From: Mycoplasmatota bacterium
GTDB taxonomy: Bacteria; Bacillota_I; Bacilli_A; RF39; UBA660
Assembly: GCA_022771205.1 (NCBI GenBank)
Contig: JALFCF010000001.1
Span: 130,663-194,662, forward strand
DNA length: 64,000 nt
Direction: 5' to 3'
A program made the position numbers and the translations under genes. Positions 16,914 to 57,892 of the stretch are shown in pieces. Within the stretch, counting starts at the first letter, position 1; each line of letters begins with the position of its first letter. Under the pieces are notes generated by a model. That model worked only from the letters and a program-made list of their open reading frames with translations. It was not told the DNA's origin and made no database searches.

Positions 16914-16985
16914 TTATGTTTAAATTAGCCTGAGATATCGAAAAAACGCTAATTGTATGTTATAATTGAATGGATAGGTGATAGT

Positions 16986-19900
16986 ATGGTTTATGAGAGT
17001 GAAATTGAAGAAGCAATAATACAATTGTTACAAAATAAAAATTATGAATTTATTGATGAAAATGATAGTTGGATTTCTGATAGAAAATTAGACGAATTTA
17101 TTAATAAAGATTTATTATTAGACTGTTTATCTAGAATTAATGGTACAAATGATTTTGAAATATTAAATGAAGCTGTTAATACAATAATGAGACTTGAAAA
17201 TCCGTCTTTATTTGAAAGAAATTTTGCATTTCATAAATATTTAATAGATGGAATTACTATTGAATCAAAGAATTATGTTGTAAATCCTTTGATTAGATTT
17301 ATTGACTTCGAAACACCTGAAAATAATGTTTTCCAAGTATGCCATCAAGTTAAATTTAATGAAGGTAGAAGTAATAGAATTCCAGATGTAATTATTTATA
17401 TTAATGGTATTCCTTTAGTTGTTATGGAACTAAAGAATTTTAGTGAAGACGCAACAAAAGCTATGCTTGAAGATGCATATGATCAATTAGGCGAATCAAG
17501 TGAACATAATGGATATAGATATGACATACCAACTTTATTTAATTATAATGCTTTCTTAGTAATATCTGATGGAGTAACTACTAAAGTAGGTACTTTGACT
17601 TCTAAGATAGATAGATTTAATGAATGGAAAAGCGTGGCAGGTGAAAAAGGATACGATGATTCTTGCGTAACTCAATTAAATATTCTTATAGATGGACTAT
17701 TTGAACAACATAGATTATTAGATGTGATAAAAAATAATATTTTCTTTATTCAAGATAAAAATAATAAACCAGTTAAAATTATGTCACAATATCATCAATA
17801 TTTTGGTGTTAATAAAGCATATGATTCTATATTAAAAACAATAAAACCTGAAGGTTCTGGTAAAGCTGGTATTATTTGGCATACTCAAGGTTCTGGTAAA
17901 TCATTTTCAATGGTAATGTTAGCACATAGATTGTTGATATCTCCACAATTAAATGTACCAACAATAGTACTATTAACTGATAGAATAGATTTAGACGATC
18001 AATTATATAAAACATTCTTTAGTGCTAGACAATATTTAAAATGTGAACCAGTTGTTGCTACTTCAAGAGAAGATTTAGTAAAAAAATTATCTCAAATAAA
18101 GCAAGGTGGAGTAATACTAACAACTGTTGGAAAATTTGATAAAGAGAATCTTCCTAAAAACGAAAGAACTAATATTATTGTAATGACTGATGAGGCACAT
18201 AGAGGTCACTATGGCTTATATGAAACAGTTCATTATGAAAAGAATAAAGAAACAGATGAAATGGAAGCAGTATTTAAATATGGCGTTGAAAAATATATAA
18301 GAGATGCGTTACCAAATGCTACATTTATAGGTTTTACAGGTACTCCTGTTTCAACTAAAGATAAACAAACTACTGATATATTCGGTGATATTATTGATAC
18401 ATATGATATGACTCAGTCTGTAATTGATGGTTCAACTGTTAAATTATATTATGAATCAAGATTAGCTAAAGTATGGACAGATGAAAATATACTTCATGAG
18501 ATAGATAATTACTATAATGATTTAGAAAAGTCAGGTGACGCAGATTCTAATTCAATTGAAAGATCTAAAGCTGAAATGTCTAAGATTAAGGTTATTTTAG
18601 AAGAAGATGATATGATTAATCTTTTTGCTAATGATATCATTGAACATTATGAAGAAAGAAAAGGTTTCTTAAACGGAAAAGCTATGATTGTTTGTCAAAC
18701 TAGACATGCTGCTGCAAAATTATATAAAAGAATAATAGAATTAAGACCTGAATATGAAAAATCAACTATTCTAGTTGTAACTGAATCAAATAAAGATACA
18801 GCTGAAGAAAGAGAATTATTTGGCAACTCCGATTATAGAAAAGAATTATCGGAGGAATTTAAGAAAGAAAATTCTAAATATAAAATTGCTATTGTATGTG
18901 ATATGTGGCTTACTGGTTTTGATGTTCCAGATCTAGATGTTATGTATTTTATTAAGAGATTAAAATCTTATAATTTAATGCAAGCAATTGCTAGAGTAAA
19001 TAGAGTTTTCCCTGGTAAACCATATGGACTTGTTGTTGATTATATTGGACTTGATAAAGCATTAGATGAAGCATTAACTGAATATACTGATAGAGATAGA
19101 GAAAACAATTGCCAAGATATTAAAGAAGAAATATATACTATATTAAAAGAAAAATTATCAGTATTAAATGAAATGTTCTACAAAGTTGATAAATCAAAAT
19201 TCTTTAGTAGTGATGCATTAACAAGATTTACTGCTATACAAGATGGTACTCAATTTGTTTTAGAAGATAAAAAACGTGAAGATCAATTTATGAGTGATTT
19301 ATCTATAACAATAAAGCAAGCCTTTGTAGTATGCGGTGGTATTGCTACACAAGATGAAAAGAATGATGTTTATTATTACTTATCTATTAGAAGTTATATT
19401 CTTAAACTTAGAATTAGAGTTGGAACTGTATCAACAAGAGAAATGAATGATTATGTTTCTAATTTGTTAGCTGATGCAATTAAAGGTGATGAAGTTAAAG
19501 TTCTAACAAAAGGTGCTGATGCTGTTAATGTAATAGATTTGCTAAGTACAGAAAAAATAGAAGAATTAAGAAAGAAAAATCCACCTTTGGTTTTTGTTGA
19601 AATTGTTAAGCGACTACTTGAAAGAGCAATTGCTGAATCAAGGAAAAATAACTTCTTTAAATCCCAAGAATATTCGAAGAGATTAAGGAAAATTCTTGAA
19701 AAATATAATGATAGAGATAATCTATTTACTCCAGAAACAACAATTGTTGATTTAGTTAATTTTGCTGGTGAAATGGTTAGTGATGAAAAAGAAGCAAATA
19801 AATTAGGTATATTTGGACGTGAAAGAGCATTTTATGATGCATTAATTAGAGATAAATCAGCACAAGAATTATTAAATGATGAGACTTTAAAATTAATTGC

Positions 19901-20087
19901 TCATGAATTAAAAGAAGTGGTAGAGGAATATGCACTAACTGATTGGTCTGCAAAAGAAGCAACTCGTGCTAGAATGAGAACCAAAATTAAGGAATGCTTA
20001 AGAAAATATAATTATCCACCAGAATATACTCAACAAGCAGTGGATGATGTTATTAAACAAGCAGAATATATTATGAATGATAATTAG
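16986..20087 (+). CDS. hsdR: Type I restriction enzyme R subunit
   Basis: Motifs 'TDEAHRG' and 'QGSGKS', ~1030 aa. Start was chosen at ATG 16986 after an 'aggtga' RBS; the track starts at 16953. Confidence 0.9.
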   Translation: MVYESEIEEAIIQLLQNKNYEFIDENDSWISDRKLDEFINKDLLLDCLSRINGTNDFEILNEAVNTIMRLENPSLFERNFAFHKYLIDGITIESKNYVVNPLIRFIDFETPENNVFQVCHQVKFNEGRSNRIPDVIIYINGIPLVVMELKNFSEDATKAMLEDAYDQLGESSEHNGYRYDIPTLFNYNAFLVISDGVTTKVGTLTSKIDRFNEWKSVAGEKGYDDSCVTQLNILIDGLFEQHRLLDVIKNNIFFIQDKNNKPVKIMSQYHQYFGVNKAYDSILKTIKPEGSGKAGIIWHTQGSGKSFSMVMLAHRLLISPQLNVPTIVLLTDRIDLDDQLYKTFFSARQYLKCEPVVATSREDLVKKLSQIKQGGVILTTVGKFDKENLPKNERTNIIVMTDEAHRGHYGLYETVHYEKNKETDEMEAVFKYGVEKYIRDALPNATFIGFTGTPVSTKDKQTTDIFGDIIDTYDMTQSVIDGSTVKLYYESRLAKVWTDENILHEIDNYYNDLEKSGDADSNSIERSKAEMSKIKVILEEDDMINLFANDIIEHYEERKGFLNGKAMIVCQTRHAAAKLYKRIIELRPEYEKSTILVVTESNKDTAEERELFGNSDYRKELSEEFKKENSKYKIAIVCDMWLTGFDVPDLDVMYFIKRLKSYNLMQAIARVNRVFPGKPYGLVVDYIGLDKALDEALTEYTDRDRENNCQDIKEEIYTILKEKLSVLNEMFYKVDKSKFFSSDALTRFTAIQDGTQFVLEDKKREDQFMSDLSITIKQAFVVCGGIATQDEKNDVYYYLSIRSYILKLRIRVGTVSTREMNDYVSNLLADAIKGDEVKVLTKGADAVNVIDLLSTEKIEELRKKNPPLVFVEIVKRLLERAIAESRKNNFFKSQEYSKRLRKILEKYNDRDNLFTPETTIVDLVNFAGEMVSDEKEANKLGIFGRERAFYDALIRDKSAQELLNDETLKLIAHELKEVVEEYALTDWSAKEATRARMRTKIKECLRKYNYPPEYTQQAVDDVIKQAEYIMNDN

Positions 20088-20095
20088 GAGATAGT

Positions 20096-21019
20096 ATGAA
20101 TATAGGTAAACTAAAAGAAGTTGATATTAGAAATTTATGGAAACATGAGCAATATGATTTTTCTGAATGGCTATCGCATGATGAGAATATAGAGGAACTA
20201 AATGATATATTAGGCTTAACTTTAACTGATGTATCTAAAGAAGTGTATGTTGGTTCTTATAGATGCGATTTAGTGGCTGTTGATGAGTCAACTGGAATAA
20301 AAGTAATAATTGAAAATCAACTTGAATCATCTAACCATGATCATTTAGGCAAAATTATTACATATGCCTCAGGGTTAAATGCTCAAGTTGTAGTGTGGAT
20401 TGTAACTCATGCAAAAGAAGAACATAAAAGTGCAATTGAATGGTTAAATAATAATACTAATGGAGATGTTAACTTTTTCTTAATAGAATTACATGCATAT
20501 AAAATAGGTGATTCATTACCAGCTCCTTACTTTGAGGTAGTAGAAAAGCCAAATGATTTTATAAAAAATACTAAAGTAAATAGTGATAAATCAGAACTTA
20601 ACAAATCTCAATCAGAGAGGTTAGAATTCTGGAATCAGTTCAATGATGTTTTAATAGAAAAGGGGAAACCATTTAATGCAAGAAAAGCTACAACAGACCA
20701 CTGGTATGATGTTGCTATAGGAACAAGTGCAGCTCACATAGGTATTACTTTGGTTAATAAAGAATCTTATATTGGAGTAGAATTCTACATAAATGATGAT
20801 AAAGAAATGTTCGATAAATTATTAGAAAAACGAAGCATAATTGAAGAGGAATTAGGATTTAAATTAGATTGGCAAAGATTAGAAAATAGAAGTGCTAGTA
20901 GAATTAAATACTATATTAAAGGTTTAAATTTTGATGATCATTCAAATTATGATGAATTAATAGACAAATCAATTACTGCTGCTACAAAAATGAGAGACGT
21001 ATTTAAAAAGTATATTTAA
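20096..21019 (+). CDS. PD-(D/E)xK nuclease-like N-terminal domain with a DUF4268-like C-terminal region, of the kind often found beside Type I RM loci
   Basis: 'CDLVAVDESTGIKVIIENQLESSNHDHLGKIITY' fits the D...E-x-Q/K + 'GQhhxY' restriction-endonuclease-fold motif. Gene follows hsdR by 8 nt. Confidence 0.45.
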   Translation: MNIGKLKEVDIRNLWKHEQYDFSEWLSHDENIEELNDILGLTLTDVSKEVYVGSYRCDLVAVDESTGIKVIIENQLESSNHDHLGKIITYASGLNAQVVVWIVTHAKEEHKSAIEWLNNNTNGDVNFFLIELHAYKIGDSLPAPYFEVVEKPNDFIKNTKVNSDKSELNKSQSERLEFWNQFNDVLIEKGKPFNARKATTDHWYDVAIGTSAAHIGITLVNKESYIGVEFYINDDKEMFDKLLEKRSIIEEELGFKLDWQRLENRSASRIKYYIKGLNFDDHSNYDELIDKSITAATKMRDVFKKYI

Positions 21020-23438: not shown

Positions 23439-23468
23439 TTGACATATCAAAAGTTGTGTCCTATAATC
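23439..23468 (+). promoter_or_regulatory. Sigma-A-type promoter: ttgaca, 18-nt spacer, tataat
   Basis: Consensus hexamers seen in sequence. Confidence 0.5.
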
Positions 23469-23473
23469 TACAA

Positions 23474-23572
23474 CAAGTGAGGAGATATAAACGATTTGTG
23501 AGCTATCTCGGGGTAAAACCTACACGAACATAAAGTACGGAGTCGCAAGTAATACGACTTCGTACTTTTTTC
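23474..23572 (+). promoter_or_regulatory. Copy 1 of a conserved 5'-UTR RNA element of unknown class, ending in an intrinsic terminator (gtacggagtcg / cgacttcgtac + T6, 23535-23572)
   Basis: Shares four exact blocks with copy 2 at 31965-32043: gaggagatataa, gtgagctatct, aaaacctacacgaaca, aagtacggagtcgc. Confidence 0.45.
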
Positions 23573-23608
23573 GTATAAAGTCAAAGTCGGAGAAAGGAGG
23601 TATAAAGA

Positions 23609-23797
23609 GTGAGTAAAAAAATTGATGTGGGACAATATTTCAAAAAAAGATATGAAACGGAATGTCATTCTATAAAAGAAAAAGAAAATCAGGGGATTTA
23701 TATAGATAATATGGCACTAGATTTACTAGAAGAAAGAGGATTTGATAGAAAACAAAAAACAATTTATTATAATAAATATATAAGGAGATATATATGA
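23609..23797 (+). CDS. Small basic protein (62 aa), translationally coupled to the downstream Ham1-NUDIX gene
   Basis: Strong RBS 'aaggagg' + GTG. ATGA overlap with the next gene. Confidence 0.4.
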   Translation: MSKKIDVGQYFKKRYETECHSIKEKENQGIYIDNMALDLLEERGFDRKQKTIYYNKYIRRYI

Positions 23798-24798
23798 AAG
23801 AAATAACTTATGTAACAGGCAATTGGGCTAAAATTGATAGTGCTAAACAAATATTAGAACCACTTGGATACCAAGTGAATAATATAAAAATGGATACAAT
23901 CGAAATACAAGCAGATACAACAGAAGAAGTTGCTAAATATTCTGCTAAATGGGCTAGTGAAAAATTAAAATGTGCGGTATTAAAAAATGACTCTGGTTTA
24001 TTTGTAGAAGCATTAAATGGTTTTCCAGGAGTATATACACATTATGTAGATGATACTTTAGGAGAAGATGGATTATTGAAACTTTTAGATGGAGTAGAAA
24101 ATAGAAAGGCTTACTTTAAAGAAGTCTTAGCTTACTGTGAGTATGGACAAGAACCTATTACATTTACAGCAATCACAAAAGGTACTATTGCGAAAGAAAA
24201 GAGTGGAACTTATGGCTGGAGTTGGGATTTTGTTTTTATACCCGAAGGACAAACGAAAACTTTAGGTTGTTATCCAGATAAAGAAAGATGGAAATTTTGG
24301 AGTCTAGAAGCATACCAACATTTAGCAGCATACCTAGATGAAAAAGAAAAAACACCAGAAGAAAAAAATGAAATCAGTGTGTTTGTTCTAAATGATCAGA
24401 AACAAATACTATTACAAAAAAGAAGTGCTAATAAAAAATATTATCCTAATAGATGGGCATTATTAACTGGCCATGTAGAAGAAAAAGAAACAATAGAAGA
24501 AGCAGCTTTAAGAGAACTACAAGAAGAAATCGGCTTAAAAATAAATAAAGATGAATTATATCCATTGGCTAACGGAAATTTTACAATTAAAAGAGAAAAT
24601 CATCATAATACTCATTATTTTTATATTATAAATAATAAACTATCATCAGATTTTATTATTCAAAAAGAAGAATTATCAGAAGTAAAATGGTATGATATTG
24701 ATGAAGTAATAAAATTAATAAAAAACAATTCTGAAGAAATAGTTTATAAAGAAGATAAAATCTATTTATTTGAGTATTTAAAAAATATGTCAATTTAA
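23794..24798 (+). CDS. Fusion of Ham1/RdgB-like non-canonical purine NTP pyrophosphatase and a NUDIX hydrolase
   Basis: N-terminus 'ITYVTGNWAKIDSAKQIL' is Ham1-like. C-terminal Nudix box 'GHVEEKETIEEAALRELQEEIGL'. Confidence 0.6.
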   Translation: MKEITYVTGNWAKIDSAKQILEPLGYQVNNIKMDTIEIQADTTEEVAKYSAKWASEKLKCAVLKNDSGLFVEALNGFPGVYTHYVDDTLGEDGLLKLLDGVENRKAYFKEVLAYCEYGQEPITFTAITKGTIAKEKSGTYGWSWDFVFIPEGQTKTLGCYPDKERWKFWSLEAYQHLAAYLDEKEKTPEEKNEISVFVLNDQKQILLQKRSANKKYYPNRWALLTGHVEEKETIEEAALRELQEEIGLKINKDELYPLANGNFTIKRENHHNTHYFYIINNKLSSDFIIQKEELSEVKWYDIDEVIKLIKNNSEEIVYKEDKIYLFEYLKNMSI

Positions 24799-28395: not shown

Positions 28396-29001
28396 ATGAA
28401 AATTTTATTCGCAACAACAAATCCGGCTAAGGTAAAAACTTATGCATCAAGACTAATAGAAAAAGGTTATGAAATAGTTACTTTAAAAGATTTAAAAATA
28501 GATATAGATGTAGAAGAAAATGGAACAACACCATTAGAAAATGCTATTATTAAAGCTAAAGAATATCATAAAATAAGTAATCTTCCAACGATTGCGATGG
28601 ATGAAGGCCTATATTTAGATGGTGTTCCAGAAAATCTTCAACCAGGAACTCATGTAAGAAGAGTAAATGGTAAAAAGTTAACTGATGAAGAAATGATTAC
28701 TCATTATATCAATCTAGTAAATCAATATGGTATTAATGGTAAGTTAACTGGTTATTTTCAAAAAGGAGTAGCTATTTTAAATGATAATCAAATAGATACA
28801 ATCGAAATAAAAGCTCCAAGATGTTTTTCTAATACAAGATGTGAAACAATTACAATAGGCTATCCGTTGGCTTCTATCCAATGGATGGAGGAGTTGAACA
28901 AATACAAAGCAGAATTAACAAAAGAAGAAGAAAATAAATTAATGTCTAAAGAACAAAAAGAAATACTAGATTTTATAGAATCCAAAATAGCCAGAAATTG
29001 A
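28396..29001 (+). CDS. Ham1/RdgB-family non-canonical NTP pyrophosphatase-like protein
   Basis: 'ILFATTNPAKVKT' N-terminal signature. Confidence 0.55.
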   Translation: MKILFATTNPAKVKTYASRLIEKGYEIVTLKDLKIDIDVEENGTTPLENAIIKAKEYHKISNLPTIAMDEGLYLDGVPENLQPGTHVRRVNGKKLTDEEMITHYINLVNQYGINGKLTGYFQKGVAILNDNQIDTIEIKAPRCFSNTRCETITIGYPLASIQWMEELNKYKAELTKEEENKLMSKEQKEILDFIESKIARN

Positions 29002-29796: not shown

Positions 29797-30522
29797 ATGA
29801 ACAATAATTTAGATGTATGGGCTATTCAAAAATATCCCCAAGAGTTATTTACTGCCTTAGAAAATGTCAAAACAGATAAAGGTGACTTAATCTTATTTAC
29901 TAACTTGGAATGTGACTTTATATTAGGTGCACAAAAAGTGAAAAGAAGTTTTGATACTTCTCTTTACTATGATGCAGAAAATGGAAATGATGCTTTAATA
30001 TTATTAATGAAAGATGGAATAGCAACAGCAGATCAAATAAGAGAGTACTTACAAAAACAAGGGTTGAAATATCATGAAGTAACTTTTTATAAAGGATTAA
30101 AAGAAAAGTTATTAAACGAGTTTTCTATTCCATATGAGGAAGAAAAAGAAGATGAAAATATACCAGAACTTTGGTTTGCAAGGGAAGAATATGTATTAAA
30201 AGATGCATTAAATGATAGTATTGAAAAAGGAAACACTACTTGTGATTATTATCCTGCACTAGAAGGAATTTTAAGTTTAAATTACATTAGTAATGAAAGG
30301 CCAACTAGTTTTAACGTAGATGGAAGAAAAATTTCAGGAGTAATAGCTTTAGAAGATAAAATGATTTTAATGATTAATAATGGAAACGATCCAAGAAATC
30401 TAAATCCATTGCAAGTCCAAATGGTAATGGACGAATTAAATGTTTCTGCTAACATACATTCTGCTAAAGAATTTGATATTTCAAAACCTTATCAAAGCAA
30501 GGTAATGAAGAAAAATGAATAA
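29797..30522 (+). CDS. Hypothetical protein
   Basis: ORF. No motif recognised. Confidence 0.35.
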   Translation: MNNNLDVWAIQKYPQELFTALENVKTDKGDLILFTNLECDFILGAQKVKRSFDTSLYYDAENGNDALILLMKDGIATADQIREYLQKQGLKYHEVTFYKGLKEKLLNEFSIPYEEEKEDENIPELWFAREEYVLKDALNDSIEKGNTTCDYYPALEGILSLNYISNERPTSFNVDGRKISGVIALEDKMILMINNGNDPRNLNPLQVQMVMDELNVSANIHSAKEFDISKPYQSKVMKKNE

Positions 30523-31249
30523 AGTAGAAGAGTTAGCCCAAATTATAAAAAGTTCTTCTAATACAGTTTTTTTTGGTGGGGCAGGAGTATCAACAGAAAG
30601 TGGATTAAAAGATTTCCGTAGTAAAGATGGATTATACTATGAAAAATATAAGTATCCGCCAGAAGAAATATTATCACATCATTTTTTTATAAAATATCCA
30701 AAAGAGTTCTATGAATTTTATCGAAAGAAGTTAAATAGTTTAAATTACAAACCAAATGCAGCCCATAAAGTATTAGCATACCTAGAAGAAAAAGGATTAT
30801 TAAAAGCTGTTATTACTCAAAATATTGATGGTTTTCATCAAATGGCTGGATCAAAAAATGTTATTGAATTACATGGATCTGTATTAAGAAATTACTGTAT
30901 GAAATGTAATGAATTCTATGATGCCGAAAAGATTTTTGCAGAAGATAATATACCAAGGTGTGACTGTGGAGGCATAATAAAACCAGATGTGGTTCTATAT
31001 GAAGAAAATTTAGATGATAAAAGTATTCAAAAAGCAATTAAGTATATTAGTGAAGCTGAGGTTTTAATTATAGGAGGAACTTCATTGAATGTTTATCCAG
31101 CAGCTGGACTAATAAATTATTTTAAAGGAAAATATTTAGTTCTAATTAATAAAGAACAAACTCCATATGACAGAAAATGTACATTAACAATCTATGATAG
31201 TATTGGAATAGTTTTAGAAAAAATAAAAGAATACATAGAAAAAGGATAG
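30515..31249 (+). CDS. cobB: NAD-dependent protein deacylase (sirtuin, Sir2 family)
   Basis: 'FFGGAGVSTESGLKDFRS', Zn-ribbon CxxC...CxxC, 'GTSLNVYPAA'. Confidence 0.8.
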   Translation: MNKVEELAQIIKSSSNTVFFGGAGVSTESGLKDFRSKDGLYYEKYKYPPEEILSHHFFIKYPKEFYEFYRKKLNSLNYKPNAAHKVLAYLEEKGLLKAVITQNIDGFHQMAGSKNVIELHGSVLRNYCMKCNEFYDAEKIFAEDNIPRCDCGGIIKPDVVLYEENLDDKSIQKAIKYISEAEVLIIGGTSLNVYPAAGLINYFKGKYLVLINKEQTPYDRKCTLTIYDSIGIVLEKIKEYIEKG

Positions 31250-31255
31250 GAATTC

Positions 31256-31906
31256 CTATCTTTTCTTTTGCATAATAACTCCATACATATCAACATTATC
31301 TTTGCCATAATACCCATAAAACTTTTGTGCTGGTTGAGGCAATAAACTCATTCTATCATCAATGATACTATTAACTTTAGAATTGAAATTATTAACATCC
31401 TGTTGATATTGCATTTCTACTTCTAATACTTTTTCTTGTGGAACTCCTGGAACAATACCTGTTGTATAATAAACAAGAGCAGACTGTTCTGGTCCATCTT
31501 TCAGAGTATCTATTCTAGCAAATAGTGGTAAAAAGTTAAGCATTTTCCTTTCTTGTACTAAAGATACAAAAGGAATGTCCCAATAATTATTGACAGTATA
31601 ATCAAAAAATAAAGAATCACCATCACCAATTCGATTAATAATATCTTCAGTAGGAAAAGCATAATGTTGATTTCTATCTGTCCTTATTTCAGCACTATTC
31701 GTCCAAGGAAGACATTCAACGGAAAAAACTGTTCCTGAATTGCAATCCCACAGTAGAACTTGAAAATCATCATCTTGATCATTTTGATATATAGTTTTAC
31801 ATCCCACAGATGTCAATAACTGAACTAATCCATAAGCTGTATCTATTGTTTTTTTATCATTACTCACTAGTAAATTAAACCTCCTAAAACAACTATAGTA
31901 TACCAT
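31256..31906 (-). CDS. Hypothetical protein
   Basis: ORF. No motif recognised. Confidence 0.35.
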   Translation of the reverse strand: MVYYSCFRRFNLLVSNDKKTIDTAYGLVQLLTSVGCKTIYQNDQDDDFQVLLWDCNSGTVFSVECLPWTNSAEIRTDRNQHYAFPTEDIINRIGDGDSLFFDYTVNNYWDIPFVSLVQERKMLNFLPLFARIDTLKDGPEQSALVYYTTGIVPGVPQEKVLEVEMQYQQDVNNFNSKVNSIIDDRMSLLPQPAQKFYGYYGKDNVDMYGVIMQKKR

Positions 31907-31928
31907 ATGTCACTGAAAAAGACTAATA

Positions 31929-31957
31929 TTGACTTTTTTTCAAGCATATGCTATAAT
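31929..31957 (+). promoter_or_regulatory. Sigma-A-type promoter: ttgact, 17-nt spacer, tataat
   Basis: Seen in sequence. Confidence 0.5.
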
Positions 31958-31964
31958 AACCAAG

Positions 31965-32090
31965 CAAGCGAGGAGATATAAGCAATTTTTGTGAGCTATC
32001 TTGGGATAAAACCTACACGAACAAGCAGTAAGTACGGAGTCGCTAAGCAAATAGTGGTCTTTGTGCTTTTTATTTTGCAAAGCATAAAGC
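31965..32090 (+). promoter_or_regulatory. Copy 2 of the conserved 5'-UTR RNA element (core 31965-32043), followed by weaker hairpins before the RBS of gene 32108
   Basis: Same four exact blocks as copy 1, with small indels between them. Confidence 0.45.
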
Positions 32091-32107
32091 TATAAAGGAG
32101 AGATAAA

Positions 32108-32662
32108 ATGCAAAATAAACAAATTATAGATCCTAGCATCCAAGGATTAAACAATATTCCGCAACATTTTGATAAATTAGCAAAAAACTATTATGTGTAT
32201 AAATATGCTTCAGCATTAAAGGTTTCAGAACAAGAACAACAAGAAATGAATGTATTAGAAGTACTAGAACAACTAGGATTTCCTATGGATAAAACAGGAA
32301 CATATTTTTATAAAGAAATAATTATGAAAACTATGGAAGAATTAGAGATGGTAGAAACAAAAGAAGAAGAAAGAGATTTAAAGACAGCTATGGAGAATAG
32401 TTATTCTCAATTCTATTTTGATATTGCTAGAAATAACATAGATATTGGTTTAAAATCATTTCATGGTTGCATTCAGTTAGCTTATGAAGGAAGAAAAAAA
32501 ACACCAGACTGTATAAAACTAGAGCAAAGAATAGGAATAAATGGTGTTTGCTCTGATTACAGAGCAGAAGCAAGTTTAATAGCTAGACATATCATGACTA
32601 ACAATAACAAAGCAAAAGAACCACAAGCTGTTCAAACAACTGCAGTAGTAAAAGTAAAATAA
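32108..32662 (+). CDS. Hypothetical protein
   Basis: RBS 'aaaggagag'. No motif. Confidence 0.35.
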   Translation: MQNKQIIDPSIQGLNNIPQHFDKLAKNYYVYKYASALKVSEQEQQEMNVLEVLEQLGFPMDKTGTYFYKEIIMKTMEELEMVETKEEERDLKTAMENSYSQFYFDIARNNIDIGLKSFHGCIQLAYEGRKKTPDCIKLEQRIGINGVCSDYRAEASLIARHIMTNNNKAKEPQAVQTTAVVKVK

Positions 32663-32757
32663 TTATGTAAAAAGCATAGAATTATTTATCTATGCTTTTT
32701 ATATGTCTAAAATATTCGATTATGATATACTAAATATAAAAATGAAAGGGAAATAAA

Positions 32758-33021: not shown

Positions 33022-33164
33022 ACTATTTGTAAAAATATGACAAGTTAAAATTATACATATTGATATTCAAAGAAAGTAAAAAAATACTTTCTTTTTTTTA
33101 TGATAATAGATTGACAAGTGTATAAAAGTACGCATATAATTAAAATGCAGAAAGGATGTGAATT

Positions 33165-33812
33165 ATGGAAGTAACAAACCCAAAGTATCAGCATCAAGGA
33201 ATACATGTTATCACCTCAATTTTTACAGTAGATAAAGGAATATTGAAAGTATTACTAGTAAAAAGGAAAAATGAACCTTACAAAGATTACTGGGCATTAA
33301 CTGGTGGATCTCTTTATAATGATGAAGATTTAGAGGATGGACTAAATAGAGAAATATATGAAAAAACTGGTTTAAGAAATATTGAAGTGAAATTTTCAAA
33401 AGTTTTTGGTAAAAAAGATAGATCACCAGTAATGAGAATGATAGCTATTACTTATATTGGGATAATTGATGCTAGTAAGGTAGAAATTGCAAAAGATACA
33501 TTAAAAACAAGTAATGCTGAATGGTTTAAAATTGATGAAGTACCACAACTTGCTTATGATCATAATGAAATAATAGAAGAGGCAATAAAGACATTAAAAG
33601 CAGAAATTTTAAAAACAGACTTATTAAAGGTCTTTTTCCCTAATGGATTCACCTTACCAGAATTACAAAAAATATATGAAAGTATCTTAAATAAAAAATT
33701 AGATAGAAGGAATTTTAGAAAAAAGATGTTAAATACGAACATTATTATAGCAACAGAGGAAGAAATGACTTTTGAGGGAAAGAAGAAAGCTAAAATTTAT
33801 AAATTTAAATAA
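33165..33812 (+). CDS. NrtR-like regulator: NUDIX domain fused to a C-terminal winged-helix domain
   Basis: Nudix box 'TGGSLYNDEDLEDGLNREIYEKTGL'. C-terminus 'LPELQKIYESILNKKLDRRNFRKKML...KAKIYKF' matches the NrtR DNA-binding-domain pattern. Confidence 0.55.
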   Translation: MEVTNPKYQHQGIHVITSIFTVDKGILKVLLVKRKNEPYKDYWALTGGSLYNDEDLEDGLNREIYEKTGLRNIEVKFSKVFGKKDRSPVMRMIAITYIGIIDASKVEIAKDTLKTSNAEWFKIDEVPQLAYDHNEIIEEAIKTLKAEILKTDLLKVFFPNGFTLPELQKIYESILNKKLDRRNFRKKMLNTNIIIATEEEMTFEGKKKAKIYKFK

Positions 33813-42880: not shown

Positions 42881-42964
42881 GGCATCTTTTTTTTGCGATT
42901 TGCAGAGAAAGTATAATTTTGTTATAATAAGTATAGAATGAATAATAGGAAGGAGACAAATTCA

Positions 42965-43125
42965 TTTAAGCGCCTGGACTTTAACAGTTGACGAGGACAG
43001 TAGTGATCGAAAGATTCGGCGGATGCTACTGCGGGGAAAAGTGCTTCGTTAGATATATAGCAAAAAGTAAAATTAACATTACAACAATATATATATCACC
43101 ACATATATTTTTAGCATGGAGGAAA
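42965..43125 (+). ncRNA. glmS ribozyme: glmS ribozyme (GlcN6P-responsive self-cleaving riboswitch)
   Basis: Core 'AGCGCC...GACGAGGA...CGAAAGAUUCGGCGGAUGC...' matches the glmS ribozyme consensus and sits directly 5' of glmS. Confidence 0.8.
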
Positions 43126-46225: not shown

Positions 46226-46302
46226 GGCGGCGTTGGTGAAGTGGTTAACACGCTGGTTTGTGGCACCAGTATGCATGAGTTCGATTCTCATACGCCGCCC
46301 CA
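46226..46302 (+). tRNA. trnH: tRNA-His (anticodon GUG), with the extra G-1 base and encoded CCA
   Basis: 8-bp acceptor stem including G-1:C73. Anticodon loop cttGTGgc. T-arm atgag-TTCGATT-ctcat. CCA at 46300-46302. Confidence 0.85.
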
Positions 46303-57772: not shown

Positions 57773-57892
57773 AACCTTATAAAGAGTAGTGGAGGGACTG
57801 GCCCAGTGATACTACAGCAACCTATTAAATTAGGTGCTAAAGCCTGCATGATAAGGAGCTAGAAAACAGGTTTCAACCTGTTTTTTTCTTTC
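57773..57892 (+). promoter_or_regulatory. S-box: SAM-I (S-box) riboswitch with terminator (aaacagg-tttcaa-cctgttt + T7)
   Basis: 'CUUAUAAAGAGUAGUGGAGGGACUGGCCCAGUGAUACUACAGCAACC...GGUGCUAAAGCCUGCAUGAUAAGG' matches the SAM-I consensus. Upstream of metK. Confidence 0.8.

Follow-up and report, generated by a model that had tools for sequence, protein, structure and literature searches.

Guanidine-I to -IV, fluoride and Gd4v riboswitches lie in 5′ leaders, where the 3′ part of the aptamer competes with an intrinsic terminator, and as ON switches they activate exporters and GNAT acetyltransferases. Among them, Gd4v is an orphan variant of guanidine-IV that is enriched in the gut and switches GNATs and exporters on; its ligand has escaped identification (PMC9788692). 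In SAM-I (RF00162) and NiCo riboswitches, helix P1 closes a junction of three further helices with conserved junction bases, one of these helices (P2) contains a structured internal loop, and a terminator serves as the expression platform. Riboswitches of the same class are also known to be arranged in series, which sharpens responses (PMC9481103).

We investigated a leader RNA that occurs twice, as copies 1 and 2, in a stretch of 64,000 nt of bacterial DNA, here called the window. Like the guanidine, fluoride and Gd4v switches, it occupies a 5′ leader in which the 3′ part of the fold and an intrinsic terminator are alternatives, and it would likewise switch on exporters and GNAT acetyltransferases. 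As with Gd4v, its sequences come mainly from gut metagenomes and it is an orphan, and Gd4v is its closest functional analogue, albeit a structurally unrelated one. Indeed, guanidine-IV and Gd4v consist of two hairpins with a kissing loop, whereas the leader studied here forms a four-stem junction that is unrelated to them in sequence and fold. Moreover, the exporters of guanidine-type switches are of the MATE or SugE type, whereas those found here are of the ABC-2/DrrA type, and the first gene often encodes a Spo0A_C-like protein. With SAM-I and NiCo the leader shares a P1 that closes a junction of three further helices, a P2 interrupted by a structured internal loop, conserved junction bases and a terminator platform. 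However, the conserved bases differ, the SAM clan models do not match the leader, and SAM-I is an OFF switch of biosynthesis genes, whereas we propose ON logic here. Finally, as in tandem riboswitches, two complete units of fold and terminator can follow each other in one transcript, but here an open reading frame (ORF) often separates the units, which differ systematically in their P2a sequence.

When the region of copy 2 (31901-32110) was compared with the window using BLASTN, its sole relative was copy 1 (23461-23549), with 82% over 97 nt (E 3e-17). The presence of a second copy, as given in the original prediction, was thus confirmed by this match and by the covariance model scores of both copies (E about 1e-22). 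The four exact blocks said to be common to the two copies, GAGGAGATATAA, TGTGAGCTATCT, TAAAACCTACACGAAC and AAGTACGGAGTCGC, were visible in the pairwise alignment. In the same alignment the likeness ended on either side of the element and the flanks were unrelated. Since the likeness is confined to the element, a recent segmental duplication including flanking DNA, which had been named as a possible explanation, is excluded. A two-block pattern matched twice in the window and not at all in 100 shuffles, and a covariance model search of the 64 kb gave no further copies besides these two. The promoter TTGACT-17-TATAAT lies ahead of copy 2 where it had been read and matches the consensus at 11/12 positions, with a TG extension in the spacer; the start of transcription deduced from it, at ~31963-31965, coincides with the first bases of the element. 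The coordinates of all features are collected in Table 1.

Table 1. Features of the two leader copies, their surroundings in the window and the loci of two subgroups of the family.
Feature	Position	Strand	Details
Copy 2, four-stem domain, ~80-nt element	31964..32047	+	Covariance model 77.7 bits, E 1.5e-22
Copy 1, four-stem domain	23473..23550	+	Covariance model 77.6 bits, E 1.6e-22
Copy 2 promoter	31929..31957	+	-35 TTGACT 31929-31934, 17-nt spacer, -10 TATAAT 31952-31957
Copy 1 promoter	23439..23467	+	TTGACA-17-TATAAT, 12/12 matches
P1, copy 2	31967-31971 with 32040-44	+	Pair statistics, 115 distinct homologues
J1/2, copy 2	G31972	+	Covariance model
P2, copy 2	31973..32002	+	P2a GAGAUA/UAUCUU; distal hairpin P2b 31982-31992
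P2 internal loop, copy 2	UAA 31979-81 opposite GAGC 31993-96	+	
J2/3, copy 2	G32003, or paired with U32014	+	Single purine family-wide
P3, copy 2	32003..32014	+	GGG/CCU closing A-rich loop AUAAAA
J3/4, copy 2	ACA 32015-17	+	Covariance model
P4, copy 2	32018..32036	+	CGAAC/GUACG, A-A mismatch, loop 32023-32031
J4/1, copy 2	GAG 32037-39	+	Covariance model
Copy 2 predicted intrinsic terminator	32030..32077	+	-16.0 kcal/mol, ViennaRNA scan
Copy 1 predicted terminator	23533..23573	+	AAGUACGGAGUCG...CGACUUCGUACUU and U-run; -17.2 kcal/mol; z -2.84
Shine-Dalgarno GGAG(AGAUA) and ATG of the gene most probably controlled by copy 2	32097..32110	+	
Gene most probably controlled by copy 2, 184-aa protein	32108..32662	+	No Pfam/NCBIfam family; Spo0A_C-like predicted fold
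Hairpin and U-run directly 3′ of the 184-aa gene	32669..32706	+	AAAAAGCAUAG...CUAUGCUUUUU
Hairpin and U-run site 3′ of the GNAT gene	33069-33100		
NrtR promoter	33111-33140		TTGACA-18-TATAAT, 12/12; NrtR at 33165
62-aa ORF behind copy 1	23609-23797	+	GTG start
Ham1-NUDIX fusion gene behind copy 1	23794-24798	+	NCBIfam: XTP/dITP diphosphatase-like
Loci with type II copies			L001, L018, L033, L039, L041, L045, L052, L056, L079, L084, L093, L094, L101, L104, L108, L111, L112, L115, L118, L120, L121, L123, L130
Loci with the second small-protein type			L008, L013, L031, L053, L062, L077, L086, L111, L113

Scans of the window with Rfam 15 at the gathering threshold gave matches to glmS, SAM and a tRNA only, all outside both copies. 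These are a glmS ribozyme at 42958-43107 (76 bits), a SAM-I riboswitch at 57774-57857 (66.5 bits) and a tRNA at 46227-46299, ordinary matches that are consistent with a Bacillota genome. With the threshold relaxed to E up to 10, both copies gave chance-level matches only (<20 bits), none of them credible for the four-stem domain, and in these scans neither copy matched NAD+-I/II, SAM-I/IV, guanidine-I to -IV, the ykkC subtypes or T-box. A full-text search, whose incomplete coverage means that an earlier publication is possible, returned no description of the motif. The element is thus a previously uncatalogued leader RNA family without an Rfam entry.

Relatives were collected in two pattern scans, both of which needed exact sequence blocks and therefore skewed the sample toward sequences that we call type I and their close relatives. 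An exact-pattern scan of one genome per species, with blocks from the 3′ half of the element, matched 12 loci, all in metagenome-assembled genomes (MAGs) of uncultured Bacilli, Erysipelotrichaceae, "Tenericutes"/Mycoplasmatota and Candidatus Faecimonas (Bacilli incertae sedis), including one short contig binned as Muribaculaceae. A second pattern, taken from the 5′ half and leaving the 3′ half free, matched at least 120 metagenome contigs, many of them named as human gut assemblies; among the matches listed, two were false positives, and many contigs are near-duplicates that inflate the counts of homologues and genes. Two patterns had no match in viral contigs, which gives no sign of a phage element. 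A covariance model was then built from 61 sequences with a hand-drawn structure and gave 119 matches in 96 sources, of which 115 were distinct. These include many second, far more divergent copies that the search patterns could not have selected.

Sorted by hand, the sequences showed fixed blocks alternating with three hairpins of variable length (P2b, P3 and P4), according to the consensus 5′-(A)GUGA-G-[P2a, 6 bp]-UAAR-[P2b hairpin]-(Y)GAGC-[P2a′]-R-[P3 hairpin]-ACA-C[P4]G-GAG-UCAC-3′. P1, which is short (a 4-bp core), closes a junction of the three hairpins P2, P3 and P4, and the junction bases are invariant or nearly so. The internal loop of P2, with UAA opposite GAGC, is presumably similar to UAA/GAN, a recurrent motif. 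In P2a, pairing reaches 99.7% and 5/6 pairs show double changes; the helix alternates between GAGAUA/UAUCUC, UAUGUA/UACAUA, UGUGUA/UACACA and others. P2b varies in length and covaries, and P3 measures 3 to about 9 bp in the homologues. In P4, the closing C:G pair is conserved and double changes occur at 4/5 pairs, with GAAC/GUAC, AAU/AUU, GUAU/AUAC, GCG/CGC and AAG/CUU among the variants seen by eye.

Over the 115 distinct homologues, 87.7% of the cells were in standard pairs compared to 74.5% in shuffles, counts that come from an alignment fitted to the covariance model and so lean toward the model. The covariation score was 0.394 compared to 0.168 in shuffles, with 0/500 shuffles reaching 0.394, and it fell to 0.02-0.09 when the partners were slid by 1 to 3 columns as a control. 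Changes on both sides were found in 19/24 pairs. Moreover, RNAalifold recovered P1, P2a, P2b and P3 from a structure-blind MAFFT alignment and additionally P4 from the divergent type II subset, and minimum free energy (MFE) folding alone gave the same four-stem shape for single divergent sequences. The leader thus has a conserved structured domain backed by covariation, as expected for a riboswitch. The original description of a conserved, promoter-proximal, structured 5′ leader RNA is supported by this covariation and by the placement of the promoters, and conservation of the structure across some 115 homologous loci is strong, so that a lack of conservation in related loci, which had been proposed as evidence against it, was not what we found. 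We conclude that the leader RNA represents a new family, which is real and has unusually good support.

Several other readings of the same bases were rejected. A pairing of CCUAC with GUA(C)GG was discarded since GUAC covaries with the adjacent GAAC in the local P4 while CYUAC stays fixed, and a UUUGUG/CACGAA pseudoknot since UUUGU already serves as the 3′ strand of P2b, a local hairpin that covaries. A reading of GAGGAG as a leader peptide or Shine-Dalgarno-like signal was rejected, since the segment is part of P2a, where UAUGUA, UGUGUA and the like take its place along with compensating partners. Ribosome-mediated attenuation was dismissed as well, since the substitutions are helix-like and the variable lengths of P2b, P3 and P4 put any reading frame out of register; AUG or Shine-Dalgarno-like strings in the leader were not conserved between type I and type II copies.

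In 115/117 distinct instances, the most stable hairpin abutting a U-run starts within the four-stem fold, and its 5′ arm consists of the P4 3′ strand, GGAG and UCAC or, at minimum, of GAG and UCAC. In copy 2, the 5′ arm (32030-32045) is formed by the P4 3′ strand, GGAG and the P1 3′ strand, the 3′ arm spans 32052-32068 and the U-rich tail 32067-32076; the 40-nt hairpin (32030-32069) reads AAGUACGGAGUCGCUAAG...GGUCUUUGUGCUUU and is followed by the tail TTATTTTG (UUAUUUUG). In copy 1, the hairpin (23533-23567, tail UUUUCG) overlaps the P4 3′ strand, J4/1 and the P1 3′ strand. Both copies therefore carry a stable G+C-containing hairpin directly before a U-run, as in intrinsic terminators, at which termination is predicted. 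A consensus terminator scanner, which accepts loops of 3 to 8 nt and requires 5 or more T in the 8 bases behind the stem, detected neither of the two. The original prediction had described the 3′ platform of copy 2 as different and weaker, with hairpins that may sequester the ribosome-binding site (RBS) instead of terminating. This did not hold, as copy 2 has the standard terminator of the family in the same design as copy 1 (-16.0 versus -17.2 kcal/mol), and complementarity to the RBS is present in 6/88 members.

In MFE folds of the whole leader of both window copies, the terminator was present and P1 and P4 were absent; on its own, the four-stem fold amounts to just about -12 kcal/mol. Since the terminator shares the P1 and P4 strands and wins over the fold in these predictions, the two structures are mutually exclusive and the default would be termination. 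The leader thus has an expression platform that is exclusive with the aptamer fold, again as expected for a riboswitch, and a factor stabilizing the fold would turn the gene ON. Further downstream, a post-terminator hairpin UGCUUU/AAAGCA (window 32064-32084) is kept in the clade of the window (L002-L012) and not family-wide, and the RBS region GGAGAGAUA (32097-32105) repeats the 5′ strand of P2a, which is likewise not kept across the family.

All type I copies (94/94) have an upstream promoter with at least 9/12 matches (mean 11.5), whose -10 box mostly ends 4 to 6 nt before the start of the model. Such near-consensus promoters suggest that initiation is constitutive and that nearly all control takes place at the terminator. 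In contrast, the divergent type II copies, 24 in number, have a mean promoter score of 8.0, no better than background, and carry UAUGUA, UGUGUA or UGUAUA in P2a in place of GAGAUA. They are located right after the small-protein gene described below or 40 to 80 nt behind a type I copy, and each carries its own terminator. In 23 loci, a transcript would thus contain two complete units of fold and terminator in series (three in one case), of which the first would be the gate for the putative regulator and the second that for exporter or GNAT genes. This order of leader, regulator gene, second leader and effector genes is an unusual wiring, with two switches of identical specificity placed around an ORF.

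The genes described 3′ of copy 2 are indeed present, namely, those for an unknown 184-aa protein, an Acetyltransf_CG GNAT, NrtR, thymidine kinase and an AAA_28 protein. The hairpin and U-run directly 3′ of the 184-aa gene is likely the end of the transcription unit controlled by copy 2. Since two hairpin and U-run sites and NrtR's own promoter precede it, the NrtR-tdk-AAA_28 cluster appears to be a separate unit, and copy 2 most probably controls the 184-aa gene alone and not the NrtR-tdk cluster. The shared nucleotide- or NAD-linked regulon that had been postulated is not supported, as NrtR-tdk has its own 12/12 promoter and the genes of the family are mainly those for the Spo0A_C-like protein, exporters and GNATs. 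The wealth of nucleotide and NAD housekeeping genes in the window probably misled this inference. Two Ham1-family genes lie within 5 kb (23794-24798 and 28396-29001), one of them fused to NUDIX, and a Sir2-like ORF (30515-31249) was recognized by eye just upstream of copy 2. Behind copy 1, the stop of the 62-aa ORF overlaps the start of the Ham1-NUDIX gene (ATGA); of the features of the small-protein family, this ORF has the LGF...G.Y signature alone (hhalign E 1e-4, probability 56%), and it may be the remnant of a truncation whose present role is in translational coupling. Elsewhere in the window, the region 16953-21019 contains a 1044-aa ORF whose translation resembles, by eye, HsdR, the R subunit of type I restriction enzymes; for the 307-aa ORF behind it, no function was recognized by eye.

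The 184-aa protein gave no sequence match in Pfam, NCBIfam or PDB, including Spo0A_C and the Spo0A entries of PDB; the sole Pfam signal, FokI_dom_2, was below threshold and was discarded. A search of a collection of 5.8 billion proteins returned 22 relatives, none of them annotated, after 7 in an earlier large protein-database search. An AlphaFold2 model (pLDDT 82, pTM 0.81) was compared with known structures using Foldseek and resembled the C-terminal domain of Spo0A in 1fc3_A (probability 0.99, TM on target 0.77, rmsd 2.8) and in 1lq1_D (probability 0.96, TM on target 0.81), with weak E-values (0.6-1.3) for which these matches are treated as a structural resemblance. All other PDB neighbors had a TM below about 0.3. 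The motif hG.P....G..Yh+-.I was seen by eye in both the protein and the Spo0A effector domain (1fc3 and 1lq1), which are alike in predicted fold. In contrast to Spo0A, the protein has no receiver domain and no significant sequence match, and at the N-terminus it extends beyond the effector domain by some 40 aa. From its model, it is best described as a stand-alone Spo0A-effector-domain-like protein and is presumably a transcription factor. The organisms that bear the motif appear to be non-sporulating Bacilli with reduced genomes.

Across the family, every copy is in sense orientation ahead of genes, in the 5′ leader of transcripts with predicted starts, as expected for a riboswitch. Near-duplicate contigs raise the counts of associated genes that follow, and the choice of search patterns biases them. 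In 56/95 type I copies, the first gene encodes a small protein (cluster C0 in 44, C7 in 9 and C22 in 3). Other first genes encode GNAT acetyltransferases (Acetyltransf_3 and others) or an ABC ATPase that belongs to the DrrA (daunorubicin-resistance) subfamily and is accompanied by two ABC-2 permeases, including ABC2_membrane_6, and about 25 type I copies lie directly before exporter or GNAT genes with no small protein in the locus. A methyltransferase, a type I phosphodiesterase/nucleotide pyrophosphatase, DUF1846, P-loop kinases and Ham1 were encountered less often. Operons with Ham1, Nudix and phosphodiesterase genes were in the minority, and NrtR/tdk neighbors were found in the window's own clade only. 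A second small-protein type of about 140 to 160 aa, with the motif EIGRFYA..F.G..FEF...KPFKWAKKKG, also occurs in the first-gene position (Table 1); it has a short L..LG....YLY-like segment in common with the Spo0A_C-like family and no NCBIfam match. This coherent, detoxification-like gene set suggests a compound for removal and points to no single one. The nearest solved relatives of the commonest GNAT were an uncharacterized GNAT and then the SpeG spermidine and diamine N-acetyltransferases (E about 1e-8), whose sequence similarity may be a weak hint to the ligand.

We consider it highly probable that the leader is, at minimum, a structured cis-acting transcription-attenuation element. With moderate confidence, we go further and regard it as a candidate orphan riboswitch of the ON type that acts in cis, is absent from Rfam and would sense a small molecule. 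A strong, constitutive-looking promoter would start the transcript at the first base of the element, and the first ~80 nt could fold into the P1-P4 junction, with nearly invariant bases such as ligand-binding aptamers have. In this fold, the 3′ third (the P4 3′ strand, GGAG and the P1 3′ strand) would double as the 5′ arm of the terminator. By default, the more stable terminator would form and transcription would stop ahead of the gene; stabilization of the four-stem fold, most probably by a small molecule, would keep the terminator from forming and allow read-through. In copy 2, the output would be the small Spo0A-effector-domain-like protein, presumably a transcription factor relaying the signal. 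In related genomes, the same RNA, often with a second, promoter-less copy in the transcript, would gate DrrA-like ABC-2 exporters and GNATs. Given the exporters and GNATs behind the RNA, the ligand is more likely a toxic or surplus compound for acetylation and export than NAD or a canonical nucleotide. As to its identity, we can only guess, with low confidence, at a xenobiotic or an amine similar to polyamines or diamines.

Since the first gene very often encodes a putative nucleic-acid-binding protein, there is room for a protein-mediated mechanism, in which a protein, possibly the small one encoded just downstream, binds and stabilizes the four-stem RNA; this could result in positive autoregulation at type I copies and activation of effector genes at type II copies. 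The predicted nucleic-acid-binding fold of the small protein, its first position in 56/95 type I loci, often followed by a second RNA copy, and an architecture of fold and terminator that suits any stabilizing factor all agree with such antitermination. However, the C-terminal domain of Spo0A is a helix-turn-helix that binds double-stranded DNA (PDB 1lq1) and not RNA, and about 25 type I loci have no such gene. Moreover, the known sites of protein-dependent antiterminators (RAT, ANTAR, TRAP and PyrR) are simple hairpins or triplet repeats, whereas this RNA has the complexity of an aptamer, with a four-way junction and about 35 invariant bases, and a signal input would still be required. We thus regard antitermination by a protein as unlikely.

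A riboswitch for a NAD- or nucleotide-related metabolite that coordinates a nucleotide/NAD regulon would fit the Ham1-NUDIX (XTP/dITP diphosphatase) gene behind copy 1, the NrtR, tdk, AAA_28 and Sir2 genes near copy 2 and the Ham1, nucleotide pyrophosphatase/phosphodiesterase and P-loop kinase genes of some related operons. It is nevertheless very improbable, since the NrtR-tdk-AAA_28 cluster has its own promoter and is separated from the leader by two hairpin and U-run sites, exporters and GNATs dominate family-wide, neither NAD+-I, NAD+-II nor any Rfam nucleotide riboswitch family bears a likeness to the leader, and an essential cofactor is ill suited to ON control of exporters. Even less credit is given to an action of copy 2 on translation, through downstream hairpins or the P2a 3′ strand sequestering the RBS. 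When 31964-32110 is folded by MFE, UAUCUU (31997-32002) does pair with the complementary GAGAUA (32100-32105) of the RBS region, but a full terminator with U-tail lies in between, similar to that of copy 1 in design and stability, and the complementarity of UAUCUU to GGAGAGAUA recurs in only 6/88 members of the family. That the two copies have no function and reflect a recent local duplication or chance likeness is hardly conceivable: nothing beyond the existence of two similar sequences speaks for it, and the unrelated flanks and the 115 distinct homologues with compensatory changes in many taxa speak against it.

If the leader is a riboswitch, as we favor, it would be an orphan class, with over 100 representatives in lineages that experiments have hardly touched, namely, uncultured gut Bacilli, "Tenericutes"-like organisms and Erysipelotrichaceae MAGs. 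In the window itself, the annotation is corrected, in that copy 2 most probably serves one gene and not the NrtR-tdk cluster. More tentatively, and as a conjecture slightly less likely than not, the leader might be a new class limited to uncultured, reduced-genome gut Bacilli that senses a gut-relevant toxic amine or xenobiotic in a two-checkpoint circuit, in which unit 1 would release the Spo0A-effector-domain-like factor and the diverged unit 2 the DrrA-like exporter and acetyltransferases. The identity of the ligand would assign functions to the uncharacterized GNATs, the ABC-2 exporter and the stand-alone Spo0A-domain protein, and it would reveal the compound that these organisms acetylate and pump out in the gut.
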